From a bacterium (GTDB lineage Bacteria; UBP15; UBA6099; JAJRTR01), in NCBI GenBank assembly GCA_024278215.1, contig JAJRTR010000011.1, positions 25,583 to 89,582 of the forward strand: a stretch of DNA of 64,000 nucleotides, in the 5' to 3' direction. The position numbers were made by a program, and so were the translations under genes. Below the pieces are notes generated by a model. The model did not search any database and was not told the origin of the DNA. It saw only the letters and a list, made by a program, of their open reading frames with translations. Position 1 is the stretch's first letter, and each line of letters begins with the position of its first letter. Below, piece by piece: positions 9,321 through 63,993 of this stretch.

Positions 9321-9329
9321 TGTTTTGGT

Positions 9330-11507: not shown

Positions 11508-11780
11508 TCAATCCGCAGTTGCAGTCGCCTCTTCAGGTTCGATCGTATAGCCGCAATAGGGGCAGAACGGTTCATACTCACTGACGGGCTTTCCACATTT
11601 CACGCAGTCGAACTTTGCGATTTTTGTGGACTCGTGTTTCCCCTTTGCGTCGTCCACGCAGGTTCCGGATTCGTCTGCCGTATTCTCTCTCTTCGCTTTC
11701 AGATACCTGTTTGCCCCATAACCGATACCAAGAGCGGCGGCTGTTCCTGCGATGACAGCGAGCCAGGTGCGGTTCATCAT
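11508..11780 (-). CDS. Small membrane-anchored zinc-ribbon protein
   Basis: N-terminal hydrophobic segment; C4 ribbon CVKCGKPV...CPYCGY. ATGA overlap with the upstream TPR protein gene. Confidence 0.55.
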   Translation of the reverse strand: MMNRTWLAVIAGTAAALGIGYGANRYLKAKRENTADESGTCVDDAKGKHESTKIAKFDCVKCGKPVSEYEPFCPYCGYTIEPEEATATAD

Positions 11781-15789: not shown

Positions 15790-17220
15790 TTACGCCCTCC
15801 TGCGTTCATACGATGATGGAATTCTCAGTTCTTCTCTGTACTTTGCGACAGTTCTTCGGGCAAGTTTGATGCCTTTCTCAAGCAAAATATCGCGTATGCG
15901 ATTATCTGAAATAGGCTTCTTCGCATCCTCGTTGAAGATGAGGTTTTTTATATATTCCTTAGGCCGGATGGAAGAGTCGAAAAAGAAATCGAAACTGAAT
16001 ATTTCGCCCGATGGAACCCGGATGAATTTTCCCGACATTGCCCTTGAAACCGTCGATTCGTGCAGTTCGATTTTTTCCGCGAGCCGTCCTTGCGTCAGTT
16101 CAGTATTGAAATTGGGTAATCCCTTAATGAGGAATTCCGCCTGCTCCTCACATATCGCTTTTGCTATTTTGTCGAGTGTCTGCTTCCTCTGCTCGATGCT
16201 GTCCTGGTAGAACTTTGCGCGCCTGAAATATTCTCGGACATGGCTCATGTCTTTTCGAGTTATCTCTGTATTGCCCTGCTTGTATGACCTGTACATGTCG
16301 AGATATGTGCTGTTTATCCTGAGCCTGAAATCCGCAAGTTCGAGAACTTCATAGCTGAGCGCCTTTCCGTCATACCGTATCTCTATCGCCGGTTTTGCCA
16401 GTTGCACAGCATCGGTGCTGCGGCCCATATAAGCACGGCCCGGATAAGGGTTCAGGTTTCTGCGTATGAAATCAAGTGTTTCCCTGACACGGCTGACGGG
16501 CACTTCAAGTTCCGTGGCGATTCTCTCATATCTATTTTTTCCGAGGTTTTCGAAGTGCTGATCGATTATCCTTTCCGCGAGTTCGCAGCCTTTTCCTTCC
16601 TCGGCCAGTACGTTCAACTGTATCAGAAGCGCTTCGCGTGCGTCGCGCGCCCCGACACCCGCAGGCTCCAGCGTCTGGATCACTTTCACCACTTCATCAA
16701 TCACCTCGGGCGTGGTCTCAAACATATCGGCAATTGCTGTTTCATCATACGTGAGGAACCCGTCTTCGCTGATCGAGTGCACCAGGAATTCGCCTAGTTC
16801 TTTTGTGCCTTCAGGATATTCGGACGCAAGGAAATTGAGTGTGAGATAATCTCTGAATGAAGTCTCGCGCGATGTGAAACTGGTAAAAGATGTCGCGTCT
16901 TCTCTCTCGCCGATCGGCCCCTCGTAGGGTGCGCTGTCGCCGTCATATTCCATAATTCTCTGCTGGATGAATTGCTCTGTCTGTTCCTCCTCCAGATTGT
17001 CTTTCCTTCCGCAATGTTCGCATCGTGTGCCGTTCATGGGTCTTCCGCAGTGAGGGCATGTAACGATATTTTCGATCTCGAGGGCCGGGTTCTCGCTCAG
17101 TTCCTTCTGTATCTCCTGCACAAGCTCGATTACCGGCATCTGCAAAAGCTGCTGCGATTGGATAAACTGCGGACTAAGGGTTTGTATCTGCTTAAGCGAT
17201 GTGACCAGCTTGATTTCCAA
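15790..17220 (-). CDS. rpoN: RNA polymerase sigma-54 factor RpoN
   Basis: Gln-rich region I; region III; C-terminal RpoN box ARRTVAKYRE. Contains an unusual C4 zinc-ribbon (CPHC...CEHC) in region II. Confidence 0.85.
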   Translation of the reverse strand: MEIKLVTSLKQIQTLSPQFIQSQQLLQMPVIELVQEIQKELSENPALEIENIVTCPHCGRPMNGTRCEHCGRKDNLEEEQTEQFIQQRIMEYDGDSAPYEGPIGEREDATSFTSFTSRETSFRDYLTLNFLASEYPEGTKELGEFLVHSISEDGFLTYDETAIADMFETTPEVIDEVVKVIQTLEPAGVGARDAREALLIQLNVLAEEGKGCELAERIIDQHFENLGKNRYERIATELEVPVSRVRETLDFIRRNLNPYPGRAYMGRSTDAVQLAKPAIEIRYDGKALSYEVLELADFRLRINSTYLDMYRSYKQGNTEITRKDMSHVREYFRRAKFYQDSIEQRKQTLDKIAKAICEEQAEFLIKGLPNFNTELTQGRLAEKIELHESTVSRAMSGKFIRVPSGEIFSFDFFFDSSIRPKEYIKNLIFNEDAKKPISDNRIRDILLEKGIKLARRTVAKYREELRIPSSYERRRA

Positions 17221-35304: not shown

Positions 35305-36729
35305 ATGTCGAAAAAAAAGACGGACAACAGAAAAACCGGCGAATCAACAAAACTATGGGGCGGTCGCTTCGAGGAATCGACAAACCGCGCCGTGGAGGCC
35401 TTCTCGGCATCGGTGCATTTCGACTGTGAACTCGCTCTCTTCGACATAATGCAGTCTAAAGCGCACGCGACGATGCTGTGCGAGTGCGGCCTGATAAACA
35501 AGACGGAACTGAAGTCGATTCTGAAAGGACTCGACACGATCCGGGCCGACATCGACAGCGGCGAGTTCGTGTTCTCGCCCGCACTCGAGGATGTGCACAT
35601 GAACATCGAGTCGAGGCTCGCGCAGATTGCGGGCCCGGCCGCGGGCAAGCTCCACACCGCCCGCAGCCGCAACGACCAGGTTGTCACCGACCTGAAGATG
35701 TATATAAAACACGCTGTGGAAAAAATAATCGGCGGTGTGAGGGATGTGCAGGCGGCGCTTGTCGAGCAGGCGCGGCGCCACGAGTCGACGGTGATGCCCG
35801 GATACACGCATTTGCAGAGGGCGCAGGCTGTGCCGCTGGGTCATCACCTGATGGCGTATTTCTGGATGCTGGAGCGTGACGCCGGCAGGTTCGCCGATTG
35901 CGCGGTGCGGATGGACACCCTGCCGCTGGGCGCGTGTGCGCTGGCAGGCTCGGCCCTGAAGACGGACCCGGGAATTGTCGCGCGCGAACTCGGCTTCAAA
36001 TCCATCGCCGAGAACAGTATGGACGCAGTCGCCGACCGCGACTTCCTCGTCGAATATCTCTCGGCTTGCGCGATCCTGATGATACACCTGGGCAGGAGTT
36101 GCGAGGAATTTATTATCTGGATGAGCACGGAATTCGATTTCGTGACTTTCCCCGATTCGCTCTGCACCGGCAGCAGCATCATGCCGCAGAAAAAGAACCC
36201 GGATGTTGCCGAACTCATCAGGGGCAGGAACGGTCGTGTGACCGGCGCGCTCGTATCACTGCTGACAACGCTCAAGGGGCTGCCGCTCACTTACAACAGG
36301 GACCTTCAGGAAGACAAGGAGCCTGCGTTCGACGCGACAAAAACAATATTGACATCGCTGGAAGTCTACGCGCTGCTCGTGCGCGGCGCGGCGTTCAATA
36401 CCGCGCGACTCGCGGAATCTACGGCGGACGGTTTTCTCAATGCCGTGGACATAACCGATTATCTCGTGAAAAAAGGGATGCCGTTCAGGGAAACGCATCA
36501 TGTGGTGGGACGGCTCGTAAAGAGGGCGACGGATGCCGGGCGCAGGAATTTCAATGATTTTACACTGAAAGATTTCCGGGCCGAGTCGGATAAGTTCGAT
36601 GAAGATGTTTTTAAAATTCTCGATCCCGCCAAAGGCGTCAAAAGCAGACGCGGTCGCGGCGCGGCGAGCCCGGCGGATGTTCGCAGGCAGATAAAAAAAG
36701 CGGAAAAGATACTGGCACGGAATAAATGA
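35305..36729 (+). CDS. argH: Argininosuccinate lyase
   Basis: TKLWGGRF...; fumarase/aspartase-family signature region. 474 aa. Confidence 0.9.
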   Translation: MSKKKTDNRKTGESTKLWGGRFEESTNRAVEAFSASVHFDCELALFDIMQSKAHATMLCECGLINKTELKSILKGLDTIRADIDSGEFVFSPALEDVHMNIESRLAQIAGPAAGKLHTARSRNDQVVTDLKMYIKHAVEKIIGGVRDVQAALVEQARRHESTVMPGYTHLQRAQAVPLGHHLMAYFWMLERDAGRFADCAVRMDTLPLGACALAGSALKTDPGIVARELGFKSIAENSMDAVADRDFLVEYLSACAILMIHLGRSCEEFIIWMSTEFDFVTFPDSLCTGSSIMPQKKNPDVAELIRGRNGRVTGALVSLLTTLKGLPLTYNRDLQEDKEPAFDATKTILTSLEVYALLVRGAAFNTARLAESTADGFLNAVDITDYLVKKGMPFRETHHVVGRLVKRATDAGRRNFNDFTLKDFRAESDKFDEDVFKILDPAKGVKSRRGRGAASPADVRRQIKKAEKILARNK

Positions 36730-37559
36730 TTGATTTTACAAATCTCATAAGTTTCTTTGAAAACTTCACCGTCTGGGACGGCGTGCGCTCTGTTATCGAG
36801 ATCACGATCATCAGCCTCGGCATATACTACCTTCTGCTGTTCCTTCAGAGGACGCGCGCCGTGGCGATCTTAAGAGGACTCGCGCTGCTGTTCCTTTTCG
36901 CCGCGGCGTCTTATGTCCTGCAACTCAACACGATTTTTTTCATCCTGAAGGGACTCGGCGCGGTCACGATCATCATCCTTCCGATTATATTCCAGCCCGA
37001 ACTTCGCCGCGGCCTCGAACAGATGGGCCAGCGCGGCCTGTGGCAGCGCAGGTTCGGCGGACTCGAAAAGGAACAGATAATAAAACTTATTCATTCGCTC
37101 GTGCTTACGCTCGAGGACCTTTCGATTGTGAAAATGGGTGCGCTGATTGTGCTCGAACAGGAATCGAAACTCGATGAATATTCGCGTTCGGGTACAAAAC
37201 TCGACGCCCTGCTTACGCCGGAACTTCTGAAAACAATCTTCTTCCCGCACACGTTCCTTCACGATGGGGCCGTGCTGGTGCGGGGCGACCGTGTGATGGC
37301 CGCCGGTTGTTTCCTGCCTCTGTCGGAGAATCCGAATCTGCCACAGGATGTAGGCTCGCGACACAGGGCCGCGCTCGGCATATCGGAAGTGACCGATGCC
37401 GTCGCGCTCACTGTTTCCGAGGAGACCGGCCGCATCTCTCTATCCCACAACGGGAAACTCATCCAGGACATCAAACCCGATGCCCTGCGCGAACTGCTTT
37501 ATTCGATTTGCTTCCCGCAGGGAACGACATTTTCTTCGCCCATTGGGAGTGACGATTGA
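36726..37559 (+). CDS. cdaA: Diadenylate cyclase CdaA (DAC domain, membrane-anchored)
   Basis: 3 N-terminal TMs; DAC motifs LHDGAVLVRGD, GSRHRAALGISEVTDA, VSEETGRIS. ATGA overlap with argH. Confidence 0.85.
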   Translation: MIDFTNLISFFENFTVWDGVRSVIEITIISLGIYYLLLFLQRTRAVAILRGLALLFLFAAASYVLQLNTIFFILKGLGAVTIIILPIIFQPELRRGLEQMGQRGLWQRRFGGLEKEQIIKLIHSLVLTLEDLSIVKMGALIVLEQESKLDEYSRSGTKLDALLTPELLKTIFFPHTFLHDGAVLVRGDRVMAAGCFLPLSENPNLPQDVGSRHRAALGISEVTDAVALTVSEETGRISLSHNGKLIQDIKPDALRELLYSICFPQGTTFSSPIGSDD

Positions 37560-38746
37560 GAAAAAAGATACTGAACAACTGGCGCTACAAAGTTTCCGCA
37601 ATAGTGATATCCACATTGCTGTGGCTCTTCATATATTCCGAACATCAGCCCCGCTTCAGGGCGGATTATCCCGTGAATATTCAATATCTGAACCTGCCGA
37701 TTTCGCTCCGGCTCGTCGACAGGGAAGACGTATTGAGAATAAGACTTCAGGGTGAACCGGCAGCACTCAATAACGTGAATAATGAAACCCTGAAAGCCAC
37801 TGTCGACCTGGCCGGGCTGGGCGAGGGAATCCACCGCGTGCAGGTCAAAGTCTTCAACAGCACCGGCGCGCGGCTCGTTCGTCGAAACCATAATGTGCAG
37901 GTCGAACTCGAAAAGCTCAACAGCATCGAAATGCCTGTCAAACTGGGCTTCTTCGGCTCTCTTCCGGTAGGCATGCGGCTCGGCCACGTTACCTTTACTC
38001 CTGAAAAAGTCGTCATCTACGGCCAGACCGACGAACTGGCGCTTGTCCATCTCGTTGTCGCGAATATCGACCTGACGGAAAAGCAAAAGACTTTTCGTGT
38101 TAATGTGCGCCTGTCGGCGGTCGACGACCAGGGCGTTCCGCTCGACGATACTGTGAAGATCGATCCTGAAAGGATTACCGCCGTTGTTCCGGTGAAAAAA
38201 GAATTCGTCAAGGTTGTGCCCATTACGCCCAGGTTTAAAAAGGGGTCCGGGAAAGGCGGGTTCTCGGAGGCGGATTTCTACCCGACTGTCGTCAATCTCG
38301 TCGGCAACGAAGACGCGCTACGGGATATTAAAACTATAGAGACCGAAGAGTTCGACCTTTCGCGCTGCGAAGAGGGCGGCGTCTTCCCGCTCAGGCTGGA
38401 TACACCCAGAAATGTATTCGCAAATGTCGATCGTGTTACTCTCTCATGCAGGTCCGGTCAGGAAATAACACTATCCTTCCTCGTGAATATAAAAGTACTC
38501 AATCTGTGCGAAAACTGCACGTATCAATTAATTCCGAAAAAAATGAAAGTGACTATTACGGGACCTGACAACAAAGTTAATCAGATAAATATCTCGCAGA
38601 TATCCGCGGTTGTCGATGCGCTGGGACTCAAAGAGGGCACACACGACGTGCGATTGCATGTGGAACTCTCGCCGGGTGTCGAAAACGCACAGCTCGACTT
38701 CAATCGGGATAAAGTGAAACTGGTGATTTCGAAGAAAGAGGAATAG
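37556..38746 (+). CDS. cdaR: CdaA regulatory protein CdaR (YbbR-like repeats)
   Basis: N-terminal TM plus repeated YbbR-like beta domains; conserved position between cdaA and glmM. Confidence 0.75.
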   Translation: MRKKILNNWRYKVSAIVISTLLWLFIYSEHQPRFRADYPVNIQYLNLPISLRLVDREDVLRIRLQGEPAALNNVNNETLKATVDLAGLGEGIHRVQVKVFNSTGARLVRRNHNVQVELEKLNSIEMPVKLGFFGSLPVGMRLGHVTFTPEKVVIYGQTDELALVHLVVANIDLTEKQKTFRVNVRLSAVDDQGVPLDDTVKIDPERITAVVPVKKEFVKVVPITPRFKKGSGKGGFSEADFYPTVVNLVGNEDALRDIKTIETEEFDLSRCEEGGVFPLRLDTPRNVFANVDRVTLSCRSGQEITLSFLVNIKVLNLCENCTYQLIPKKMKVTITGPDNKVNQINISQISAVVDALGLKEGTHDVRLHVELSPGVENAQLDFNRDKVKLVISKKEE

Positions 38747-38751
38747 CATCA

Positions 38752-40113
38752 ATGGGAAATGGTAAAACCCGCAAGAAGATATGTTTCGGCACGGACGGCA
38801 TAAGAGGAGTAGCCAACAGCGAACTCACGCCGGAAGTGGCCCTGCTGATAGGAAAATGCACGGCGCACCAGTTGTGCAATGGCGCGGAGGGCCGCGTGAT
38901 GGTGGCAAAAGACACACGTGTTTCCGGCGACATGCTCGAAGCCGCGCTCGTCGCCGGTATCCTCTCCACCGGCGCGGATGTCTGGCGCATCGGCATCGCC
39001 CCCACCCCGGCACTTGCCTATCTCACAAACATTCGCAATTGTGATTGCGGGCTCATGATCTCCGCCTCTCACAATCCCGTCGAAGACAACGGCATAAAAG
39101 TTTTTTCAGGGAAAGGCTACAAGCTCGATCAATCCGTCGAAGACTGCATCGAGTCGCTTATGTGTGATTGCGGTGCCTCGTGCCGCGCGGTCGGCGGCGA
39201 CGGTGTCGGATATTCGATCAATAAATCTAATATCACCGGAGAATATGTCGACTTTGTGCGCGGTCTGCTCGAAGGTGTCCATTTCGACAAACCTGTTGTT
39301 GTCGATTGCGCCTATGGCGCCGCGTCGCGCTCAGCAAAACGTATCTTTAAAAATGTTTCCGCTGAAATGATTTTCATGCACAGCGATGAAGACGGAAAGA
39401 AAATAAATGTCGATTGCGGCTCGACCCGGCCCGGGTCGCTACAGAAGAAAGTGCTCAAACACGGCGCGGCGCTCGGTTTCGCGTTCGACGGCGACGGCGA
39501 CAGGGTGATTTTCGTAAACGAAAAGGGAGAAGTCGTCGACGGCGACCAGGTCATGCTCCTGTGCGGACGCAAGTTCATCAAAGACGGGAGGCTCAAGGGC
39601 AACACCGTCGTCTCAACCGTAATGAGCAACATGTCGCTTGAAAAAGAGATAGCAAAACTCGGCGGAAAAATGCTGCGCACTCCTGTGGGCGACAAATATG
39701 TCCTGAGGGAAATGAAAAGAAATGGCTATATACTCGGCGGCGAGCAGTCGGGCCACATAATTTTTCTCGACCGCTCGACCACCGGCGACGGGCTTCTCAC
39801 TGCCGCCGAAGTCCTCAAAATCGTCACAGAAGACGGTCGCCCTTTCTCCGAGCAGACACTGCTCGAACGCTCGGCGCAGTTCCTGAAAAATGTCCGTGTG
39901 CCCGACAAAGAATCATTCTATGAAAGCAAAGTTATCTCCGCGAAAGTCAGCGAAATCGAGAACCGGCTTGGAGAAAGCGGCAGGGTGGTTGTCCGCCCTT
40001 CGGGCACCGAACCGCTGATTCGCGTCATGGTCGAGTCATGGGACAAAACCGTCGCGGAAGCATACACCGACGAAATAATTGATACAGTAAAAAACGTGTT
40101 TGAATTGAGTTGA
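38752..40113 (+). CDS. glmM: Phosphoglucosamine mutase GlmM
   Basis: GTDGIRG; active-site loop SASHNPVEDNGIK. 453 aa. Confidence 0.9.
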   Translation: MGNGKTRKKICFGTDGIRGVANSELTPEVALLIGKCTAHQLCNGAEGRVMVAKDTRVSGDMLEAALVAGILSTGADVWRIGIAPTPALAYLTNIRNCDCGLMISASHNPVEDNGIKVFSGKGYKLDQSVEDCIESLMCDCGASCRAVGGDGVGYSINKSNITGEYVDFVRGLLEGVHFDKPVVVDCAYGAASRSAKRIFKNVSAEMIFMHSDEDGKKINVDCGSTRPGSLQKKVLKHGAALGFAFDGDGDRVIFVNEKGEVVDGDQVMLLCGRKFIKDGRLKGNTVVSTVMSNMSLEKEIAKLGGKMLRTPVGDKYVLREMKRNGYILGGEQSGHIIFLDRSTTGDGLLTAAEVLKIVTEDGRPFSEQTLLERSAQFLKNVRVPDKESFYESKVISAKVSEIENRLGESGRVVVRPSGTEPLIRVMVESWDKTVAEAYTDEIIDTVKNVFELS

Positions 40114-43456: not shown

Positions 43457-43565
43457 CGTATATTGAAATCGCAATGAAGTAACTATATAATTTACGCGAT
43501 CCCTGCTCAGAACAATGACATAAACATAATATTGCAGGAAATCCAACATACAGACGTGGTGCTAT

Positions 43566-44534
43566 ATGGCAAAGCGGAAATTTTATGTAATACTGAATGG
43601 GAAAGCCGGCAGGCGAGGGCTCGATTTCTCGAAGGCCGAGATCGAGAAATACTTCAAGAAGCACGACCCGGAGGCGGATGTGGAGTTCGGGGTGACCGAG
43701 CGCCCGATGCACGCCGCCGAACTGGCCCGGCAGGCTGCGCAGAGGGGCGGCTATTACGCCGTTGTCGCTGTCGGCGGCGACGGCACAGTCAACGAAGTCG
43801 TCAACGGCATGGCCGATACCGGCGTCACGATGGGCGTGATACCGAACGGGAGTACAAACATTTTCTGCACGACGGAAATGAAGATGTCTGCTGATTTCGA
43901 CGAGGCCATCAAGCTGCTGATCGAAGGGATACCGGTGAAGATCGACGCGGGCAAAGTAGGCGACAGGTATTTTATATGGATGCTCGGTGTGGGCCTCGAG
44001 GCGAAAATCGCAAACGAAGTCAACCCGAAGATAAAGAAGTATTTCGGTGTCCTTTCGTATGTCCTCGCCGCGCTCAAGCAGCTTCCCAACATAGGTTTCC
44101 AGGTGATGAAAATAGTCATGGATGACGAAAAGCAACTGACGTTTTCATCTTTGAATACGATAATCGGGAACGCTACAAGTTTCGAGGGCATATTCGGCAT
44201 CAAATCCCGGTTCAGCATCAAGGACGGTTTTCTCGACATTTGCGTGTTCCAGCGATGGACGATAATAGGAGTGATCCAGCTAATAAAGAATTTTATTATG
44301 GGGCGCCGGGACTACTATCGTTTCACCGACAGGTTCGGCGCGGCGCATGTAAGGACGAAAAGGCTTACATTGGATACAGTACCGAATGCCTGGTACCACG
44401 TGGACGGCGAAGTCATGGGGCAGACGCCGATAGAAGTGCACGTCTGCGAGAAGGCGATAACAATGATTGTCCCCGAGAAAGTTGCCGGTAAAAAGGCAAC
44501 GGAGAAATGGCGGAACGAAGGGGTTATTATTTGA
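43566..44534 (+). CDS. Diacylglycerol kinase-family lipid kinase (YegS/DagK-like)
   Basis: DAGK catalytic motif VAVGGDGTVNEVVNGM; 322 aa. Confidence 0.8.
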   Translation: MAKRKFYVILNGKAGRRGLDFSKAEIEKYFKKHDPEADVEFGVTERPMHAAELARQAAQRGGYYAVVAVGGDGTVNEVVNGMADTGVTMGVIPNGSTNIFCTTEMKMSADFDEAIKLLIEGIPVKIDAGKVGDRYFIWMLGVGLEAKIANEVNPKIKKYFGVLSYVLAALKQLPNIGFQVMKIVMDDEKQLTFSSLNTIIGNATSFEGIFGIKSRFSIKDGFLDICVFQRWTIIGVIQLIKNFIMGRRDYYRFTDRFGAAHVRTKRLTLDTVPNAWYHVDGEVMGQTPIEVHVCEKAITMIVPEKVAGKKATEKWRNEGVII

Positions 44535-44698
44535 GCGGAAGGCCGGTTCCTGCGCATTACACTTGAAAGCGGGGGGGCTGATAGTTCAGAATACTGTGGC
44601 CGCGGGCGGAGAACGCGAGACGGGCGGCAGGAATTATTTTGATTATTATGTTTTGAATGAAAGTACACGTGGTACAAACACAGAGAGGATGAAGAGGA

Positions 44699-45001
44699 AT
44701 GGATATTTCTGTTAAAAAAGAGGGGTCGGTTGTGTATATCACACCGGAAGAGGAAATCCACTTCGATAATTATAAACAACTCGAAGAAGAGATTCTCAAG
44801 GAGATAGAAGAAGGTGCCAGGGAGATAGTGCTGGATTTGACCAACGTGGAAACCCTTTACAGCATGACGCTTGGGATGTTCAACAACATAGCAACGCTGA
44901 TAGCGAGGAAGGGCGGGGATTTCGCGCTGACCAACATAAATAAAGACATTAGAAAAGTCATGAAAGCCACGAGGCTTGATAAGATTATTACTGTAAAATA
45001 A
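44699..45001 (+). CDS. STAS-domain anti-sigma-factor antagonist (SpoIIAA/RsbV-like)
   Basis: 100 aa with STAS fold features, including a conserved Ser/Thr region (TLYSMTLG). Confidence 0.65.
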   Translation: MDISVKKEGSVVYITPEEEIHFDNYKQLEEEILKEIEEGAREIVLDLTNVETLYSMTLGMFNNIATLIARKGGDFALTNINKDIRKVMKATRLDKIITVK

Positions 45002-45092
45002 TATTCAAAACCGGACTCTAATTGCATACCGACCCGAAAATTTCTGTTGCGATATATAAACGGCAATCGACTTTTCTGAAAGACAGGAAAAA

Positions 45093-46010
45093 ATGGGATT
45101 GAAAAAGTATCACATTCTGGTAGCCGACGATTCGCGTTCGGTTCGCGCATTTTTCGAGGATGTTTTCGCAAAGAAGGATAACTACGAATCGCAGTTTGCG
45201 GCTTCGGGAGAGGAAGCTGTCGAAATCTTCAGAAAAAGCATCAGCGGCGAGATAAAACCTTTCGATTTCGTTCTTTCCGACATCAGCATGCCCGGCATGA
45301 ATGGATTTGAAACACTCGAAGAGATAAAGAAACTCGATCCCAACGTCAAGACAGGAATGATCACAGGATTCAATGTCGATGATTACATAAAAATGGCGCT
45401 CGACAAGGGCGTATATAATATTATTTGCAAGATGGACAGTCCGGCGGAGATTGTCAGAACTGTAGACAATCTCATCACAGGCGAGAACTTGATGGGAATT
45501 GAAAATTACCTCGCACCCGGAACAGAAATTAAAAAAGTCAAGGTAAACCATACCTCTGAATTGAAAGTTGTGGTAGGTGAAATACTGGATTTCTGCAGCG
45601 ACATGCTTGACGAAGAAAAACAGTACGGGCTCAAGACCGGCCTTGTCGAAATGGGCACAAACGCTATTTATCATGCCTACGGTTACGAAAAAGGCTCCCA
45701 GGTGGAGCTGAAGTCTACAGAGGAAGTATATATCCAGTACGGCGCGGACGACGACTGCCTGGTTGTCGTGATTGCCGACACGAGCGGAACACTGACCAGG
45801 GAAAAAGTGTTGTCGCAACTCAACAAGTGCATAAATCCGAGTCAGGAAGACCTTGTCGCATCCGGCGGAAGGGGCCTGTACCTGACCCGCTATCTTTGCG
45901 ACAAAGTCATTGTCAACCTCGAAAAGAAAAAACGTACCGAAATGGTTCTGATCATGAATTTTAATAACGACCAGATCGAAAACAAGCCTCTTCTTGTCAA
46001 TCAGTTCTGA
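45093..46010 (+). CDS. Response regulator fused to an anti-sigma regulatory factor-type Ser kinase (REC + HATPase_c_2, RsbW/SpoIIAB-like)
   Basis: REC (ILVADDSRSV...DISMPGMNGF). The C-terminal GHKL region (EMGTNAIYHAY...VVIADTSG...GGRGLYL) resembles RsbW-type kinases. Confidence 0.6.
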   Translation: MGLKKYHILVADDSRSVRAFFEDVFAKKDNYESQFAASGEEAVEIFRKSISGEIKPFDFVLSDISMPGMNGFETLEEIKKLDPNVKTGMITGFNVDDYIKMALDKGVYNIICKMDSPAEIVRTVDNLITGENLMGIENYLAPGTEIKKVKVNHTSELKVVVGEILDFCSDMLDEEKQYGLKTGLVEMGTNAIYHAYGYEKGSQVELKSTEEVYIQYGADDDCLVVVIADTSGTLTREKVLSQLNKCINPSQEDLVASGGRGLYLTRYLCDKVIVNLEKKKRTEMVLIMNFNNDQIENKPLLVNQF

Positions 46011-46086
46011 TTCCACTCCCCACTCAGTTTCGGACACTGTGTTTCATTGCATCGTGTTTTTATTGCGTTGAATATACAACAGAGTT

Positions 46087-48252
46087 ATGATTGTGTTGGA
46101 TACCGTGCGGCGGCGGATGGCGACAATGAGCACAAGACATTTTATTCGCATTGTTATTATCACCGTATTTGCGGTGTCTATATGCCGGTGCGCGAAAAGC
46201 ATCGTCACCAACGAACCGCGTCCGGAGATATACTGGGAATTCTCAGACAGGAATAATCCTGTTGCCATCGAGAAAGTAATAGTGCGTTTTGACGGCGAAG
46301 ATGTAAGCGAGTACGCGGACACGGAATCGTGGCGGATAAGCTACAGGCCACTCGAACCGCTCGCGCCGGGCGAACACGATGCGGTAATCGTGATCTACGA
46401 CAACTTCGGGAAGAGAGCGGAGCGAGCGTGGAAGATCGTGGTCGATCCCGATGCGCCGGACACCATCAGTCCTCGCGTTGAATTCGTCGAACCGTCCCCG
46501 GCATACGGCGCTGTGCTGAATTCCGGGAGCGGTATTGCCATAGCCGCTGAAATAACGGACATGGGCGGCAGCGGGGTGGTCGAAGACACTGTTTCCATCA
46601 GAACATTTAAAGACGGTTATCTTAATAAAGAAATATGCAATTTCCCGAGGTATCTCGACGGGAAGATAAGTTGCAGCCTGTGTCGCCTGCACACGGGAAT
46701 ATACAGGATTTTCATATCCGCCCGTGATCATGCCGGCAACAAATCGGCTGAAAAAGAACTCTTTTTCTCCGTAGATTCCACAAAGCCTTCGATGGTCGAC
46801 TTTAAGCTTGAACCGGAAACGGTGGGACCCGATGACGAGATCGTCGTTGCCGCGAATCTTTATGACATACCCCCTGAAAATCTGTCGCAGTGGTTTGTTC
46901 GTGTTCTGAACCCGGAAGGTAAGACGGTGAAAGAATTCGGCGCGCCCGCAATAGAAGGGGAAAACACCCTTCGGTTCAGAGGTTTCGAGATAGAGGATAA
47001 TCCGCGCGGATCGTACAGGATAAAGGCTTATGTCGAGGACAGCGCGGGCAACATGACCGAATCCCCTTTTACGGCTGATATTGTCGTCCGGCCGGGAGAT
47101 GTTGCCGATAAGCATCCCACCGGTGCCGGCGCGGACAAAACGGGACCGGAAGCCATAGTGCCGGTGCCGCCTGATATGCCGGGCCCGCTGCCCGAACCGA
47201 ATATTGAACCTTATGCAGGCAGTGAACATGCCGCCGCCGGTATTTTCCCCGATCCGACATCCTGGGCCGGTGATACCGGTGATTCAAATAAACTGCCCGA
47301 AGACGACAAATCCAAATACAAGACCGAAAAGGAGATCGTGATCCTGCGCACGGACGCCGCACTGCCGGAATCGTCACATGAACCGTCGAACGATACCGCG
47401 CCGCCTTCGATAATTTCCATTTCTCCCCGGGACGGACTTACCACCGACAACATGTCGCCGGACATATCGTTCGGGTTCGAGGACATCGGCGGCGCGGGAG
47501 TAGACATTGCTTCTGTCCGGCTGGTGCTCGACGGAGAAGATCATTCTGAAGAAATCGAGATTAAAAAGAACAGTGCGATATACCGTCCGCCGGAACCGCT
47601 TGCGCCGGGGAGGCATATTGCCGAAGCCGGTGTCTCGGATTCCATCGGTAATGTCGCCTCAAAGAAATGGTCGTTCACCATAGCGCCCCGGTCAATAGTG
47701 GACTTATCGCCGCCTTCGGTTTCCTTCGTCTACCCGCCTCAAAATTTCATTACGAACAACAGGGTGGTGATGCTCAAGGCTGATCTGCGGGATAATGTTT
47801 CCGTGGATATGGACAGCATCACACTGACATTGGATATGAAAGATGTGTCTGTGGACGGGTTGTGCGTCGTAGACAAAAAAAACAAACTTATATGCCGTCT
47901 TGTGCTCGATGAAGGGAAACACAGGGTGTCGGTCTCGTGCTCGGACGATGAAGGCAACAGAAGCTCGGCGGCGCTCGCGCTTACTGTGGATGTCACAGCG
48001 CCCGAGACGATCATCACCAGCCATTTCGAGGGGCAGAAAGTTGCCGGGGATAAGATCGAACTTTCGGGCCGCATCTACGATATGTACGGTCATCCCGTGA
48101 AGGTCACAGTGGACGGACTGCCCGCGGAAGTCGACGCTAATTACTGGACCGTCGACAAACTGCCGATCAAACCGGGAGTGAATAATATTCAGATAATATC
48201 GAAAGATTCCGCGGGCAATATCGGCGAATCATCTATCACCCTTTATCACTAG
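46087..48252 (+). CDS. Exported multi-domain Ig-like (Big/cadherin-like) repeat protein
   Basis: N-terminal hydrophobic/lipoprotein-like segment ending in Cys; 721 aa of repeated beta-sandwich-like modules (motif ...RDHAGN / SDSIGN / KDSAGN repeated). Confidence 0.5.
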   Translation: MIVLDTVRRRMATMSTRHFIRIVIITVFAVSICRCAKSIVTNEPRPEIYWEFSDRNNPVAIEKVIVRFDGEDVSEYADTESWRISYRPLEPLAPGEHDAVIVIYDNFGKRAERAWKIVVDPDAPDTISPRVEFVEPSPAYGAVLNSGSGIAIAAEITDMGGSGVVEDTVSIRTFKDGYLNKEICNFPRYLDGKISCSLCRLHTGIYRIFISARDHAGNKSAEKELFFSVDSTKPSMVDFKLEPETVGPDDEIVVAANLYDIPPENLSQWFVRVLNPEGKTVKEFGAPAIEGENTLRFRGFEIEDNPRGSYRIKAYVEDSAGNMTESPFTADIVVRPGDVADKHPTGAGADKTGPEAIVPVPPDMPGPLPEPNIEPYAGSEHAAAGIFPDPTSWAGDTGDSNKLPEDDKSKYKTEKEIVILRTDAALPESSHEPSNDTAPPSIISISPRDGLTTDNMSPDISFGFEDIGGAGVDIASVRLVLDGEDHSEEIEIKKNSAIYRPPEPLAPGRHIAEAGVSDSIGNVASKKWSFTIAPRSIVDLSPPSVSFVYPPQNFITNNRVVMLKADLRDNVSVDMDSITLTLDMKDVSVDGLCVVDKKNKLICRLVLDEGKHRVSVSCSDDEGNRSSAALALTVDVTAPETIITSHFEGQKVAGDKIELSGRIYDMYGHPVKVTVDGLPAEVDANYWTVDKLPIKPGVNNIQIISKDSAGNIGESSITLYH

Positions 48253-48465
48253 CCCGCGTGAAAACATGACGTTTCACCTCCACTCTTTGCCATTTTCATG
48301 TGCTGAATATAGAATGTATTTCTCGAAACATAACGGTATGCGCATGTTTTGTTGCAATACCGGGAAATGTTCGCGGAGAGCGGCCTCCGGTCCGTGTCGC
48401 AAGGGAAACTGCCTCGCGGGATCACAGCCGGTCCCGCCTGTGGAAACAATTACGCGAAAGCTGGA

Positions 48466-49143
48466 ATGAACATGGTAGACCTTTTCATAAAAGGCGGCTT
48501 CATGATGTACCCGATAGTCGCCTGTTCGCTGATCGCCCTGACGATAACCTTCGAGAGAATATTTTACATCATTAGCGCCACGTCGAAAAACAATAAATTC
48601 ATCGACGAAGCGCGCCGCATAAGTGACGACGATCCGGACCGTCTGACGAAAATAAGGGAAATCGCCGGGCGCGTACAGTGCCCGGTGTCCATGCTCGTCG
48701 CGGCGGCAATAGACAACAGGTGCGAACCGGAAGGTAAAAGAAACACAATCCTGTGGCGTGTCGGCTCGAACCTGAGGCGCGACCTCGAACGTTTCGTCAA
48801 CACGCTCGGCATCATCGCGCATATCACCCCGCTGATGGGACTTCTCGGCACGGTAATCGGCATGATACGCGCTTTCATGATTATACAGGCGCTCGGCGGC
48901 CAGGTGGACGCTTCCGATCTCGCGGGCGGCATCTCCGAGGCGCTCATCACCACCGCCGCGGGGCTCGCGGTAGCGATTCCCGCTATGATCTTCTACCACT
49001 TTGTCGATGGCCGTGTTGATAAAATCGAAGCGACCATGAAGGATTCGGCAGTAATATTCCCGGAAATAATGGGCTACTATTCCGTCGGCGGCGGGGACGA
49101 TAAAAACAGGGCGAAACAGGATAAGGACAGCAGCGCGAACTGA
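48466..49143 (+). CDS. exbB: MotA/TolQ/ExbB proton-channel protein
   Basis: 3-TM MotA/TolQ/ExbB pattern (GLLGTVIGMIRAF...AGGISEALITTAAGLAVAIPA). Start taken at the internal Met at 48466. Confidence 0.8.
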   Translation: MNMVDLFIKGGFMMYPIVACSLIALTITFERIFYIISATSKNNKFIDEARRISDDDPDRLTKIREIAGRVQCPVSMLVAAAIDNRCEPEGKRNTILWRVGSNLRRDLERFVNTLGIIAHITPLMGLLGTVIGMIRAFMIIQALGGQVDASDLAGGISEALITTAAGLAVAIPAMIFYHFVDGRVDKIEATMKDSAVIFPEIMGYYSVGGGDDKNRAKQDKDSSAN

Positions 49144-49562
49144 TGGAATTCGAAGGCAGAAAAAAAATTGATATGCACGTCGACATCGCGCCTCTTGTCG
49201 ACATAGTTTTCCTGTTGCTGCTTTTCTTCCTGCTAACATCGAAGTTCATCAAGCAGCCGGGCATGAAGATAGACCTGCCCAGGGCACAGGCGGCACGACA
49301 ACAGGACAGGCAGGACATCATCGTTTCCATCACCCGCGACGAAAGATATTTTCTCAACGGCGCACCGCTCGATGTGATGGATGTACGCTCCGCACTGTGC
49401 GAAAAGATAAAGGCAAACGAGCGAAAGATCGTCATTATAAAAGCGGACAAAAAAACACCGCTTCAGCCTGTGGTGTCGGTGATGGATTACTCGAAGCAGT
49501 GCAGCGCGAACGGAGTCACTATTTCCACAAAACTTAATTCCGGCGCTGCTCCTGGTCCATGA
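49143..49562 (+). CDS. exbD: Biopolymer transport protein ExbD/TolR
   Basis: 139 aa with an N-terminal TM (VDIAPLVDIVFLLLLFFLL) and an ExbD periplasmic domain. Confidence 0.8.
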   Translation: MEFEGRKKIDMHVDIAPLVDIVFLLLLFFLLTSKFIKQPGMKIDLPRAQAARQQDRQDIIVSITRDERYFLNGAPLDVMDVRSALCEKIKANERKIVIIKADKKTPLQPVVSVMDYSKQCSANGVTISTKLNSGAAPGP

Positions 49563-49584
49563 TGCCGTGATGGATGTGAGTTGA

Positions 49585-50472
49585 TTGAAAGAATATCTCC
49601 CCAGAAAAAGTTTCCTGACGAAATCCGGTGTTGTCCTTTCCATCGTTTTGCATATTCTCGTGTTCTCGATCCCGGTAGCGCTTGTCGTCAGGCCGCCCGA
49701 CCCGAATAAGGAGAGAAAAGTCGAACTCATCTTCGAAAAACCCCGGCAACAGGCACCAAAACCAAAGCCCGCGCCTCCGAAACCAAAGCCAAAACCGAAA
49801 CCCGTGCGAAAAATCAAACCGCGACCAAAACCGCCGCCTGAGCCGCCTGAGCCGAAACAGCAAGCCGCCGAGCCGAAATCGCCCATCGAGGCCGCTGTAG
49901 CCGACGCAGGCGGCATCGACATCCCCACCGGACCCGCTTATGAAGAAGTGTATGTGCCGCCGCCTTATGTTCCCGCATGTGGAAACGGCGTGCTCGACGA
50001 CGGCGAAGAATGCGACGATGGCAACACCACAGACGGCGACGGCTGCGCTGCCGGGTGCGCACTGGAATATACCCCCGGTTGCGGCAACGGTGTGCTGGAC
50101 GCGGGCGAAGAATGCGACGACGGCAACAACGCAGACGGCGATGGCTGCTCCGCCGGGTGCCTCGATGAAGTCTATAGGCAAAACCTGCTTGCCGAATATC
50201 AGAAAAGCATACTTCTGACAATTGAACGGAATAAGAAATACCCGCCGGCGGCGCGGCGGCGCGGCATACAGGGAGCGGCGAAAGTTAGATTCGACATCGC
50301 GGCAGACGGAGCAGTCAGCGGCGTCGCGCTCGACAAAACTTCCGGGTACGACATACTCGATCGTGAAGCCCTCGCCACCATCACTCGCATAGGCCGCTTC
50401 GCCCCCATTCCCGAACCGCTCGATATGCCGCGGATGGAGATTTCCGTTGCCATCGTTTTCCGGCTCCAGTAA
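49585..50472 (+). CDS. tonB: TonB-like energy transducer with two inserted cysteine-rich ([16 protein letters not shown]..DGDGC) repeats
   Basis: N-terminal TM; Pro/Lys-rich spacer; C-terminal TonB domain ([22 protein letters not shown]...). Between them, two tandem ~31-aa Cys-rich repeats. Confidence 0.7.
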
Positions 50473-58737: not shown

Positions 58738-59337
58738 ATGGCAAGAAGACAGAAAATCAGAATCCTTATCGTTGACGACAACAAGCCGTTCACCAACGTA
58801 GCCCAGTCGTTTCTGGAACAGAAGAATCACATTGTGAAAGTTCTGAACCATCCTGGGAAAGCGCTGGATATGCTGAAAAAGGAAAACTTCCACATCCTGC
58901 TTCTCGACCTTAAGATGCCTGACCAGAGCGGCGAGGAACTCCTCGATAAAATCCGCAAGCAGGATCCACACCTGTGTGTGATCGTTGTCACCGGATATCC
59001 TTCTGTTGAATCCGCACTGTCAACAATGAAACTGAAGGCGTTCGATTATCTACAGAAACCGTTCGACATGAACGTCCTGGCGGAAGTGATCGACAAGGCG
59101 GTCTACGAACTGGGCATATACACGGACCCGGAAGAAGAGTTGAAGAGAGCGATCGGCACAAAGCTGAGGCAACTTCGCAAAGATGCCAGCTACACGTTAA
59201 AGAACCTGTCCACAAAAACCAGTCTTTCACAGAGCCTGATCTCGAAGATCGAACTGGGGAACACCTCGGCTTCAATCGCCACACTGCTCAAGCTGGCCAA
59301 TGCGCTCAATGTGCCAATCAAAGTTTTCTTCGAGTAA
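58738..59337 (+). CDS. Response regulator with C-terminal XRE-family helix-turn-helix (REC + HTH_XRE)
   Basis: REC ([10 protein letters not shown]...DLKMPDQSG...QKPF). Cro/C1-type HTH ([37 protein letters not shown]). Confidence 0.7.
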
Positions 59338-60973: not shown

Positions 60974-61402
60974 TCAGGGTTTAAAATTGGGGCTTGTGCC
61001 CACCTGCTCCTGGACGATTTGATATATGTCCGCGATCAGGCCGCCGATGAGCGGGAGGTTGACCATGTGTGCCAGAAGGTACATTGTGAGTCCGAGCAGC
61101 ACTGTCATACCGAGCCCGAAACCCAGCCCGCGCGCCAGGCCCCACAGAAAGTTAGTGTACCATATACGGCCCGGCCGGGTCACCATATCGAGATATTCGA
61201 CAAACCGCATTCTTTCCATCATCATCGCCAGTTTGTGCAGGTTGCGCACAGTGTCTGTGTCGAGTTGTACAATCTCCCGGGGCTCCGGAATGGAAAAAGT
61301 GCGTGTCTCGGTGTTCTGGTTTCTATCGCTGTTGTCCGGTATGTGATCAGACAAAAAAATCATCTCCATGCTGAATATATAGTGAACCGGTTGCAAAATC
61401 AA
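60974..61402 (-). CDS. Small hypothetical membrane protein
   Basis: 142 aa with a hydrophobic C-terminal half containing NFLWGLARGLGFGLG. TTG start overlapping the stop of the upstream gene. Confidence 0.4.
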   Translation of the reverse strand: MILQPVHYIFSMEMIFLSDHIPDNSDRNQNTETRTFSIPEPREIVQLDTDTVRNLHKLAMMMERMRFVEYLDMVTRPGRIWYTNFLWGLARGLGFGLGMTVLLGLTMYLLAHMVNLPLIGGLIADIYQIVQEQVGTSPNFKP

Positions 61403-63993
61403 AATATTCCGTGTCCGTTCATAACAGCAGTATATTTCTTATCAACAACCAGGGTGTGGTTGACAAGCCAGTCTTTGAGGAAATCCAGGAACTCCATGCC
61501 GGTAACCGCTGTCCCGGATGAGAACCTTTTCCCGAAACTGTCAATATCCTGCATAAGCCTTTTGTGTTCTTTCGCGTGATAATCCAGGTCGTGGTAGCCG
61601 CATTTTTTCATGAGCGTTTCTTCCCTGCTGAAAAGGAAGCCGGCATATTCGGTGAGTTCGCCGAGCTTACCTATAAAAAAAGACTTGTCGCTCAGGTGTG
61701 TGAAAGCCTCACAGAGATTGTTTACCATCTCGAACAGAACTTTGTGCTGTTCGTCGAGTTCACGGACATTTACACTGTAATCTTTTTTCCAGGCAAAAGC
61801 GAAATGTGCGCCGAAAGCACGCATCCTTTTTTCGAAAGTCTCGAAAAGCTTCCACTGAATATTCGGTATCTCGGCGAGCGCCTCACCGGGAATCCTGAAG
61901 CAGGCGGAGTCCTGCGTTGCCCTGGCCTTGAAAAAACTCGCTGTATCGAAGAGCACACTCTCCTCGCCGACAAAACCGCCGCGGCCAAGTGTTTCGATAA
62001 TCTTGTTTTCGGAATAAACCTGTATCTCACCTTCAGCGATCAGGATCAGTTCCGCGCCGTTGCCGTCGGGCAGCAACTCGCCTTCGCGGAAAACAGTTTT
62101 CTCCATCAGGCGGGCGATCCGGTTCTGCATCGGGTAGGAAACCATTTCGCCGAAGAGCCAGGTGCCGAGCAGGAAGCGCCTGTTCTCGTGTGCCCTCATG
62201 ATGTCGTAGTACATATTGTTGCGCTTCACGAATTCCAGGTAGATGTCGCGCGGTATCTCGATAGCCTGGACATAGCTGTCCGCGCGGAAAGTGCCGCCGG
62301 ACTTATCGCCTCTCATGCCTGAAATTTCACCGGCGAGTGTGCCCGCGGAGAGCATGTTTTTTATAGTTGTCTCCGATTCGATGTACTCGACAACACCCGT
62401 GAGAATAAGATAAATGCGTTTATTGACGGCACCGCGTTTGAGAAGAATCGTGCCGGGATTGAGGTTTATTATCGGGAAGTTAAGGATCGTTCTCAGCTCG
62501 TGGTCGGGCGCTGTGGGGAAGTATGAACGCAGGAAACGAAAAGCAGCCTGCATCTTGTAGTCCTGCCGGGCGGCAATGAGGACATCCTGCGTGCCGAAAG
62601 ATGTGCTCGATCCGATTTCCTTTTCCCTGTCGGTGAGTTCGCGCGCAGTGTGGCTCAACAAGATTTTACCCGATGTATCGTCGATAAAATCTTCGGCCGC
62701 GCCGTGCACAAGACCGCCGCCGATGTCAATCTTCTTGAGGTCGACCGGTACAAGGTACTGCTCTTTGACGCTGTCGAAATATTCCTGCGTTATCCCGCTT
62801 TCGGAGTCATCGCCCGTGATCATGTCGCCAAGTACTTTAAATGAAGCGATGTCGGCCATGTGCGCATAAGTTTTATATCCGTTCTCCCAGAACGAGCGGA
62901 AAAAGAAAATGTTGGTTTCAACAGGATGGGGCGAAAGAACGGGTTTCACTTCGAGCCCGTCGATGTTGTTCCAGACGTCGAACTCCAGGTCGTGTATCTC
63001 GAAATACCTCGAGAAGCGTTCTTCGCTCATGGACATGAGCGCTGATAGCTTTTTAGCAACGGATTCGCGAACAAGCGGAGTAGCGAAATATTTTATCATG
63101 TGGTCGGAACGAACAATCGAAGTGAGACTGGCGAAATGGTCGTCGTGGCAATGGGTATGAAATATGCCGTCGATCTCGCTGACACTGATACCGAGAGCCG
63201 TGAGGCTGTGCATGATATTCGGGCCTGCGTCTATAAGATAAAGCTTTCCCTGAAACGAAATTATACTGCCCATGCAAGGACGTGTGAAGTCCCAGCCGTT
63301 GCCCTCTCCAATGTGTATTACCGAAAAGTACTCTTTTCGTATTTTGTGAAACCCGAGAATGTATGCGGATTCGTATCGCTCACCGCGGGCAAGGTTGAGG
63401 TCCACGGTCATGGACCTGTTGCCGTAATATATTTCGTATACGTTGAACCTTCTTCTGCGTATGAACGCGCCGTCCCTGAGTTCCACTTTTTCTTTGTCTA
63501 CGATTCTCACGTCGAGCAGGTCTTCAGTGCGGCTGATCCTGTCGAATGCAAACTTGATCTTTATGCGCATCATGTCGCGAGCGGCAGGCTCGTGTATGCC
63601 GGTCTTCATTATTTCATCTTTGGAAGTAAGGCCGTAGTTGCCGCGAAAGATGTAAGTGCTCTGCGCTTCGACCTGGTTTTTAATGCCGATCAGCATCGGT
63701 TTGCGGCCCGTGTTATTGGGATGATCCGGAATTATCAACCCCTGCCTGTAGAACATCTGGAGAACCGGGAATTCAGCGAGATTGGAGAAATCGCCTTTCT
63801 GCACCGACACATCCGACAGCAGTATTGCGTTGGGACCTGTTTCGAAGCTGGTGCCGTCTTTTTCTTTCCCCGTGATCAGCCCGCGTTTCATCATATGCTT
63901 CACTATATCCGCCGGGCAACCGCACAGCACAAAAAGATCGATCTCCGGGATGCCGATCCAGTATACACCTGCTGTAAGTTTTATCTTTTCCAT
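61399..63993 (-). CDS. Multi-domain sensor: metallo-beta-lactamase fold + two cyclic-nucleotide-binding domains + C-terminal hemerythrin-like domain
   Basis: MBL motif HTHCHDDH; two cNMP-binding-like segments (one with LAGEISGM, one with GGFVGEESVL); hemerythrin HHE-type His/Glu motifs (DEQHKVLFE, HAKEHKRL). The N-terminus lies at the window edge. Confidence 0.6.
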   Translation of the reverse strand: MEKIKLTAGVYWIGIPEIDLFVLCGCPADIVKHMMKRGLITGKEKDGTSFETGPNAILLSDVSVQKGDFSNLAEFPVLQMFYRQGLIIPDHPNNTGRKPMLIGIKNQVEAQSTYIFRGNYGLTSKDEIMKTGIHEPAARDMMRIKIKFAFDRISRTEDLLDVRIVDKEKVELRDGAFIRRRRFNVYEIYYGNRSMTVDLNLARGERYESAYILGFHKIRKEYFSVIHIGEGNGWDFTRPCMGSIISFQGKLYLIDAGPNIMHSLTALGISVSEIDGIFHTHCHDDHFASLTSIVRSDHMIKYFATPLVRESVAKKLSALMSMSEERFSRYFEIHDLEFDVWNNIDGLEVKPVLSPHPVETNIFFFRSFWENGYKTYAHMADIASFKVLGDMITGDDSESGITQEYFDSVKEQYLVPVDLKKIDIGGGLVHGAAEDFIDDTSGKILLSHTARELTDREKEIGSSTSFGTQDVLIAARQDYKMQAAFRFLRSYFPTAPDHELRTILNFPIINLNPGTILLKRGAVNKRIYLILTGVVEYIESETTIKNMLSAGTLAGEISGMRGDKSGGTFRADSYVQAIEIPRDIYLEFVKRNNMYYDIMRAHENRRFLLGTWLFGEMVSYPMQNRIARLMEKTVFREGELLPDGNGAELILIAEGEIQVYSENKIIETLGRGGFVGEESVLFDTASFFKARATQDSACFRIPGEALAEIPNIQWKLFETFEKRMRAFGAHFAFAWKKDYSVNVRELDEQHKVLFEMVNNLCEAFTHLSDKSFFIGKLGELTEYAGFLFSREETLMKKCGYHDLDYHAKEHKRLMQDIDSFGKRFSSGTAVTGMEFLDFLKDWLVNHTLVVDKKYTAVMNGHGIF

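Follow-up and report, generated by a model that had tools for sequence, protein, structure and literature searches.

A predicted two-component-controlled STAS kinase in an uncultured bacterium, with a co-encoded lipid kinase as its possible output

Introduction

Response regulators that join a receiver (REC) domain to an RsbW-like kinase domain of the Bergerat fold have been the subject of two recent papers. LvrC (LIC11110) of Leptospira interrogans consists of these two domains, is seen as an ADP-Mg-bound homodimer (PDB 9qih), and is phosphorylated by the histidine kinase LvrB; in the dimer, the receiver of one subunit docks against the Bergerat domain of the other (PMC13269768, 2026). The authors propose that LvrC is an anti-sigma factor, regulated through its receiver and directed at 'a yet unknown sigma factor'; their paper does not use the word STAS and mentions neither a STAS partner nor a lipid kinase (PMC13269768). 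TciR of Vogesella indigofera, a response regulator of the REC + RsbW-like type with conserved kinase residues, represents a widespread class of which ~100 proteins were found by CDART and none had been functionally characterized before; V. indigofera has no RsbV/STAS homolog (PMC12826045, 2025). The architecture is also mentioned in the Galperin 2006 census, as cited in PMC12826045. LvrC controls virulence gene expression in Leptospira, and TciR controls pigment production. Here, we describe a protein of this class encoded in a 64,000-nucleotide stretch of DNA from an uncultured bacterium (contig JAJRTR010000011.1, positions 25,583 to 89,582, hereafter the window). Its gene is the last of three at positions 43566–46010 of the window, following those of a lipid kinase and a single-domain STAS protein.

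Receiver control of a STAS kinase is known from other bacteria. In Vibrio fischeri, the receiver-containing SypE phosphorylates SypA at Ser56, and in P. aeruginosa PA3346/HsbR phosphorylates PA3347/HsbA, likewise at Ser56; both SypA and HsbA act on other targets. CrsR/CrsA of Shewanella is grouped with these two pairs. SypE and HsbR are receiver-controlled RsbW-like kinases encoded next to a single-domain STAS protein, and a co-encoded sigma factor is at most a part of their output. Both are bifunctional, carrying a PP2C domain, and neither system is linked to a lipid kinase. The Bacillus kinases RsbW and SpoIIAB have no receiver, and their operons include a sigma factor and, for sigB, PP2C phosphatases. 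BtrW/BtrV of Bordetella and RsbW/RsbV of Chlamydia are likewise partner-switch proteins, and their output is debated or does not involve a sigma factor; neither kinase is fused to a receiver, and a PP2C phosphatase (BtrU or RsbU) belongs to the system. A first-pass annotation of the window, made from the sequence alone, had likened the genes at 44699–46010 to the Bordetella and Chlamydia systems. A non-sigma output may apply here too, and SypE/SypA and HsbR/HsbA are the closer analogues because they are receiver-controlled STAS kinases.

Results

Domains and conserved residues of the REC-kinase

The third gene (45093–46010, + strand) encodes a 305-residue response regulator with a C-terminal serine-kinase/anti-sigma-like domain of the RsbW/SpoIIAB class, hereafter the REC-kinase. 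The receiver spans residues 8–124 (45114–45464; Response_reg PF00072, E = 1.2e-19). The C-terminal half matches HATPase_c_2 (PF13581) over residues 170–282 (45600–45938) with E = 4.1e-11 and 43.4 bits against a cut-off of 27.4, and the same profile is found in all members of the REC-kinase family. A Pfam scan of the protein returned no match to HisKA or to the generic HATPase_c (PF02518) at E ≤ 0.1. When the C-terminal half was compared in isolation with all PDB sequences, the sole match was B. subtilis RsbW (6m36_A, E = 6.9e-6), with the N-box and G2 box aligned.

An alignment of 45 family members revealed which residues are retained. In the receiver, the phospho-acceptor Asp63 (codon 45279–45281) is invariant (45/45), and 44 of the 45 sequences keep D12, D13, T91, and K113. 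In the Bergerat domain, E186, N190, and H194 of the N-box (E-x-x-x-N-x-x-x-H, 45648–45674) are invariant and align with the N-boxes of RsbW and LvrC. The G2 box (G258-G-R-G261-L-Y-L, 45864–45884) aligns with GGLGLYL of RsbW, and G259-R260-G261 is present in every member. The G1 box differs from the DxGxG consensus: it reads D229-T-S-G232-T-L (45777–45794), with the glycine shifted to D+3, where RsbW has DEGD and LvrC DRGAG. D229, G232, and L234 of this variant are nonetheless invariant among the 45 members, and the catalytic motif residues are nearly invariant in 85 distant representatives too. From these residues, the REC-kinase is likely to be an active kinase, with the variant G1 box as the point of doubt.

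The AlphaFold2 model of the REC-kinase (pLDDT 87.6, pTM 0.83) contains, after the receiver, a strand (res. 146–151), a helix (res. 155–167), and then the N-box helix (res. 174–196); there is no DHp hairpin. In the model, this β1-α1-α2 topology before the N-box is of the RsbW/LvrC type and is predicted to form the dimerization element. The linker has a single invariant residue, G135, and no conserved histidine. Profile, N-box, G2 box, and the lack of DHp or HisKA place the C-terminal half, as far as sequence can tell, in the RsbW/SpoIIAB class of GHKL proteins. The first-pass annotation had proposed this class, with an HATPase_c_2 match as a check and an upstream HisKA or missing N/G-box residues as grounds for refutation; the match is present, HisKA is absent, and the N-box and G2 residues are kept, with G1 as a conserved variant.

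Relation to LvrC, TciR, and the wider class

The best PDB match of the family profile is LvrC (9qih_A, E = 2e-20), and the alignment is full-length, with profile positions 7–276 matched to chain residues 4–282 through the receiver, linker, N-box, G1, and G2. A Foldseek search with the AlphaFold2 model likewise placed 9qih at ranks 1 and 2 (top E = 2.3e-13). The global TM-score to 9qih is just ~0.37, since the domains are arranged differently in the monomer model than in the crystal dimer. The two proteins have the same two-domain architecture, similar length (~300 residues), and the N-box and G2 in common, but are only ~19% identical and differ in G1, which is the canonical DRGAG in LvrC and DTSGTL here. 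Sigma sequestration was proposed for LvrC; the window protein is strictly co-encoded with a STAS protein and a lipid kinase. TciR, which we compared by architecture rather than by alignment, has a partner histidine kinase, TciK, encoded next to it, whereas the window protein has an adjacent STAS protein and no adjacent histidine kinase. With only REC and HATPase_c_2 in 305 residues, the window protein is not a member of the SypE/HsbR group, although its kinase side is predicted to work as theirs does. Its kinase half is closest to RsbW.

An exhaustive profile search of 1.84 billion representatives identified 421 proteins at E ≤ 1e-30. Among the best 150 of these 421 matches, ~100 (counted as representative clusters) are ~300 residues long and match from end to end. 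These distant REC-RsbW proteins share 20–41% identity with the window protein and have retained the N-box, the D/G/L residues of G1, and G-R-G of G2. We had considered that the fusion might be rare or unique, as a word-indexed search returned ~46 clusters, and we rejected the idea given the ~100 clusters of the exhaustive search and the two papers that describe the class. Judged by its sequence, the window REC-kinase is a member of a broad, recently recognized class and no independent invention. Neither the REC-RsbW fusion nor receiver gating of a STAS kinase is new, the latter being known from SypE and HsbR, which also carry a PP2C domain. Two features are undescribed: a minimal REC-kinase and STAS pair lacking PP2C, and the invariable presence of a dedicated lipid-kinase gene beside this pair.

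A distant relative of the REC-kinase at another locus (L082, 1238–10411) deserves mention. This protein, P0043, resembles a REC-RsbW paralog, shares 40% identity with the window protein, and stands alone; it derives from the sample that also yielded one of the three-gene loci described below (L081). A full-length sigma-70-family gene lies 3 kb away on the opposite strand, and a Hanks-type Ser/Thr kinase is encoded downstream. P0043 may be a more LvrC-like, sigma-directed version of the protein.

The STAS protein and its predicted phospho-acceptor

The second gene (44699–45001, + strand) encodes a 100-residue, single-domain STAS protein of the RsbV/SpoIIAA-like anti-sigma-factor-antagonist type. 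It matches Pfam PF01740 (E = 6.5e-17, 61.7 bits against a cut-off of 22.6) and exceeds the cut-off of NCBIfam TIGR00377 (anti-sigma factor antagonist, E = 2.2e-16). Its PDB matches are TM1081 (3.2e-10), TM1442 (1.7e-5), and RsbV (5.8e-3). In HMMER alignments, Ser55 coincides with the phosphorylated serine of RsbV, TM1442, and SpoIIAA, so that the Bacillus phospho-serine is conserved here. The serine is specified by an AGC codon, read from the sequence at 44861–44863, within the motif TLY-S55-MTLGMFN; both residue and motif are invariant in eight STAS orthologs. Ser55 is therefore the predicted phospho-acceptor. The order given by the first-pass annotation, a STAS gene followed by a REC + RsbW/SpoIIAB-like kinase, holds, with matches to PF01740, PF00072, and PF13581 that lie far outside chance.

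A lipid kinase completes a conserved three-gene unit

Both open reading frames of that annotation, 44699–45001 and 45093–46010, are present on the + strand exactly as it placed them; the conserved unit, however, extends further upstream, to a gene that it had left out. This gene (43566–44534, + strand) encodes a soluble 322-residue lipid kinase of the YegS/Rv2252/BmrU/DgkB family with DAGK_cat (8.7e-26) and YegS_C (2.7e-13) domains. It scores 144.4 bits against TIGR00147 (YegS/Rv2252/BmrU family, cut-off 118.65), and its nearest solved structure is S. aureus DgkB (2qv7, 2.1e-22). The nucleotide-binding/catalytic motif GGDGT is intact, and GGDGTVNEV is invariant. Family profile and GGDGT motif are those of the soluble lipid kinases DgkB, YegS, and BmrU, but all other homologs found are 35–40% identical or less. 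The gap is sharp: ~30 clusters share at least 50% identity, one has 40%, and generic homologs follow at 35% or below, while the bit score drops from 346 to 157. By sequence, the protein belongs to a distinct subfamily of DgkB/YegS. The subfamily has clade-specific conserved segments, for instance G-[RK]-R-D-Y-Y-R-F, which may reflect mere close relatedness and were not used as evidence. The only intermediate lipid kinase, P0135 (40%), was examined as a possible wider link and discarded, as it sits in a polysaccharide cluster with neither STAS nor REC-kinase. Our literature search found no link between STAS or a partner switch and a DgkB/YegS kinase.

The order lipid kinase, STAS, REC-kinase on one strand is shared by the window and all 19 related loci, defined as those with a REC-kinase of at least 60% identity and sufficient upstream DNA, some of which are near-duplicates of one another (L001, L002, L081, L084–L089, L090–L096, L098, and L109). 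At L095 only the 3′ end of the lipid-kinase gene is visible at the contig edge, and L002 stops within the REC-kinase gene. Two further loci, L097 and L099, keep the STAS gene at a contig edge. No locus that fits the definition is missing the other two genes. The intergenic gaps in these trios measure 14–164 nucleotides.

The genes that flank the trio are unrelated in each independent context. In the window, a radical-SAM gene lies upstream and a gene for an Ig-domain (Big_13) protein downstream. The corresponding upstream and downstream neighbors are TetR and DUF2505 versus an IS110 transposase at L081, EPSP synthase versus ProRS at L084, an ABC transporter versus a 1402-residue protein at L088, an amine oxidase versus MaoC dehydratases at L090, a CxxCxxCC protein versus GGDEF at L091, and REC-CBS versus CheB at L109. 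The downstream gene of the window (46087–48252, + strand) starts 76 nucleotides past the REC-kinase stop and encodes a 721-residue protein with four Big_13 Ig-like domains and a glucodextranase-B-like domain; because it is not kept beside the trio at other loci, we place it outside the module.

The three families also have matching distributions. The STAS family comprises 39 clusters, all at 51% identity or above, with nothing beyond, and the REC-kinase clade comprises ~40 clusters of at least 58% identity; many STAS, lipid-kinase, and REC-kinase clusters lie on the same contigs. Neither the STAS family nor the lipid-kinase subfamily was encountered apart from this REC-kinase clade. Near the distant REC-kinases of 24–42% identity (L082, L083, L101, L104, L108), neither a STAS protein nor a lipid kinase was detected in Pfam tables, by tblastn, or with a custom STAS hidden Markov model; L110 is too short to judge for such neighbors. 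An apparent distant relative in Dechloromonas (L016), returned by tblastn, turned out to be a REC-GGDEF protein.

Partner-switch components in the neighborhood

We scanned all open reading frames of at least 80 residues in the 64-kb window with Pfam and tabulated the genes in the 7–10 kb flanks of trio loci. A cognate PP2C phosphatase, which the first-pass annotation had looked toward, is not linked: no PP2C/SpoIIE protein (PF07228) is encoded in the 64 kb or in those flanks. As had been noted, no sigma factor is adjacent. The window contains no sigma-70-family factor, its sole sigma factor being sigma-54 (rpoN, 15790–17220), 28 kb away, and no sigma-70-family gene occurs in the flanks tabulated for L081, L084–L087, L088–L089, L090, L091–L092, and L109. 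The 64 kb also lack a HisKA-type kinase; the only candidate histidine kinase is a CheA-type hybrid (5065–8493), 37 kb away. PP2C, sigma-70-type factors, and HisKA kinases are equally absent from the gene tables of the trio loci. Measured against a canonical partner switch, the window and the trio loci have the STAS protein with its conserved serine but neither the cognate PP2C nor a co-encoded sigma-70-family target.

Proposed mechanism and alternatives

We propose that the genes at 43566–46010 form a three-gene operon for a two-component-controlled STAS kinase, with the lipid kinase as the most likely regulated output, and we assign this reading a probability of roughly 0.45. Its parts carry different weight. 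That the REC-kinase and the STAS protein make up a functional, receiver-gated pair is quite probable. The lipid kinase as the output of the partner switch is a tentative assignment, at best a little short of even odds. A switch in which the STAS protein, or the kinase in the role of an 'anti-enzyme', binds the lipid kinase, so that a membrane-lipid enzyme is the client, is doubtful. The lipid kinase is the best candidate client because no sigma factor is linked and because a dedicated lipid-kinase subfamily is always co-encoded. There are precedents for each half of the idea: in Anabaena, the partner-switch-like module HenR/All4160 acts directly on an enzyme, and the soluble DgkB of S. aureus needs a protein partner for membrane recruitment (PMC11962490).

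In the proposed sequence of events, an unlinked histidine kinase would phosphorylate Asp63 in the receiver of the REC-kinase. This would alter the packing of the receiver on the dimeric Bergerat domain and switch its ATP-dependent activity or binding. The Bergerat domain would phosphorylate the co-encoded STAS protein on Ser55, and the phosphorylation state of the STAS protein would set which protein it binds, as in other partner switches. Finally, the unphosphorylated STAS protein, or the REC-kinase as 'anti-enzyme', would control the activity of the lipid kinase or its recruitment to the membrane. We infer all phosphorylation and binding events, as well as the choice of the lipid kinase as target, from analogy with LvrC (phosphotransfer and receiver docking), with SypE/SypA and HsbR/HsbA (Ser56), and with RsbW/RsbV.

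Several points weigh against this reading, beginning with the fact that each step of the mechanism is reached by such analogy. The G1 box departs from DxGxG, and although the departure is conserved, the activity of the REC-kinase is for this reason not assured. A tyrosine precedes Ser55, where characterized STAS substrates have an aspartate. The reading offers no explanation for reversal of the switch, as no PP2C phosphatase was found in the 64 kb or the 7–10 kb flanks. The trio loci all come from a single uncultured clade (57–90% identity), and their linkage, strict as it is, therefore goes back to one evolutionary event. Co-transcription may be all that ties the lipid kinase to its neighbors. 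A sigma factor may be encoded elsewhere in the genome, of which we have seen one window, and sigma sequestration is what was proposed for LvrC.

The last point leads to the alternative that survives best, though we consider it unlikely: that the REC-kinase is an LvrC-like receiver-regulated anti-sigma factor that sequesters an unlinked sigma-70-family factor, with the STAS protein as its RsbV-like antagonist and the lipid kinase as a regulon member or passenger. The full-length homology to LvrC, the resemblance of the C-terminal half to RsbW, and the TIGR00377 score of the STAS protein all fit this explanation, as does the sigma-70 gene located 3 kb from the distant relative at L082, on the opposite strand. 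Classical sigB and sigF modules, however, carry the sigma factor in the same operon, and neither the 64 kb nor the tabulated flanks yielded a sigma-70-family gene; for LvrC itself no sigma factor has been named. Sequestration also leaves the strict co-occurrence of a dedicated lipid-kinase subfamily unexplained.

Less probable still is that the STAS protein is itself the effector, in the manner of SypA and HsbA, and that its target is encoded elsewhere, for example a diguanylate cyclase, an FlgM-like anti-sigma factor, or a secretion or biofilm component. The REC-kinase would then merely switch the STAS protein off by phosphorylating Ser55, and the lipid kinase would be unrelated. The Ser56 phosphorylation in SypE/SypA and HsbR/HsbA, where the STAS protein acts on other targets, is a direct precedent, and GGDEF genes lie near the trio at L084 and L091. 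These GGDEF neighbors are not conserved, whereas the lipid kinase is the one gene that is; moreover, SypE and HsbR have their own PP2C domain, which the window protein lacks. A degenerate histidine-kinase CA domain left over from a hybrid kinase, with the STAS gene adjacent by coincidence, can draw on the Bergerat fold shared by histidine-kinase ATPase domains and RsbW and on the atypical G1 box, but is effectively refuted by the absence of HisKA, DHp, or PF02518 matches (E ≤ 0.1) and of a conserved linker histidine, by RsbW as the sole PDB sequence match of the isolated half, by the RsbW/LvrC-type β1-α1 N-terminal topology of the model, and by STAS adjacency in all 19 related loci and the two edge-truncated ones.

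If the proposed mechanism is correct, the locus would hold the first lipid-kinase output of a partner switch and would give the LvrC/TciR class, so far an orphan, its first partners by genetic linkage. For the published LvrC and TciR no downstream partner has been named, and the trio clade supplies two linked candidates, the STAS protein and the lipid kinase. These candidates narrow the question of what the Bergerat domain acts on to a few answers, open to in vitro work on three small soluble proteins. With the lipid kinase as client, the reach of partner switching, which covers sigma factors, secretion, and biofilm, would come to include the phosphorylation of membrane lipids, under direct control. 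Otherwise, the locus would still encode a minimal two-component-gated STAS kinase without the PP2C half of SypE or HsbR.

Gene calls and transcription signals

The start codons of the STAS and REC-kinase genes are backed by homologs that align from residues 1–4, and the STAS orthologs are exactly 100 residues long. The best promoter-like site, of the sigma-70 type (TTGAAA-17-TATAAT), lies 5′ of the lipid-kinase gene (43463–43491, + strand) and matches the consensus at 11 of 12 positions. Seven promoter-like sites were counted in the region against 4.1 ± 1.9 in shuffled sequences, and this one is a consensus match only, so it is possibly, on weak evidence, the operon promoter. No + strand terminator-like site was detected between the trio genes in the window, which together with the promoter-like site is weakly consistent with an operon. 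A sigma-54 promoter 5′ of the operon was also considered and set aside, as just loose, unconvincing GG-N10-GC cores were present.

An antisense open reading frame (45018–46037, − strand, 339 residues) is longer than the REC-kinase gene that it overlaps (305 residues); it has no family support and was rejected as a shadow reading frame. A greedy longest-ORF gene caller chooses the wrong strand at this position. The GC content is 0.416 for the STAS gene, 0.456 for the REC-kinase gene, and 0.525 for the lipid-kinase gene (0.535, 0.565, and 0.684 at third codon positions), compared with 0.515 for the window. The mild AT shift of the STAS and REC-kinase genes, not seen in the lipid-kinase gene, could reflect amino-acid composition or a different history and is uninformative on horizontal transfer. 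A role in defense was discarded, as none of the three trio proteins has a PADLOC match, and there are no Rfam matches in the window.

Other features of the window

A Che/Wsp-like chemosensory cluster with c-di-GMP output occupies 428–11188 on the − strand. It encodes a CheB methylesterase (428–1564), an MCP with HAMP (1879–4428), the CheA-CheW-REC hybrid kinase mentioned above (5065–8493), and a REC-GGDEF protein (9698–11188). Neither CheR nor a separate CheW was recognized in this cluster, where the open reading frames 4539–5078 and 8796–9725 have no Pfam match. On the same strand, a 1334-residue protein with TPR and Big_1/invasin-like domains (11777–15781) adjoins rpoN, and a 90-residue zinc-ribbon open reading frame (11508–11780) lies beside it.

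On the + strand, 36726–40113 carries the conserved operon cdaA (c-di-AMP synthase)-ybbR/cdaR-glmM. An ExbB-ExbD-TonB set follows the trio region (48349–50472); its TonB (49585–50472) has two DUF4215 cysteine-rich repeats inserted between a proline-rich linker and TonB_C. Given TonB/ExbBD in the window and LpxC in a relative, the uncultured bacterium is probably diderm. A response regulator with an Xre-type HTH_3 output (REC-HTH_3), a less common architecture, is encoded at 58738–59337 (+ strand). The gene at 61399–63993 (− strand) encodes an 864-residue protein that combines two cNMP-binding domains, a metallo-beta-lactamase fold, and a C-terminal hemerythrin domain, an unusual, sensor-like arrangement.

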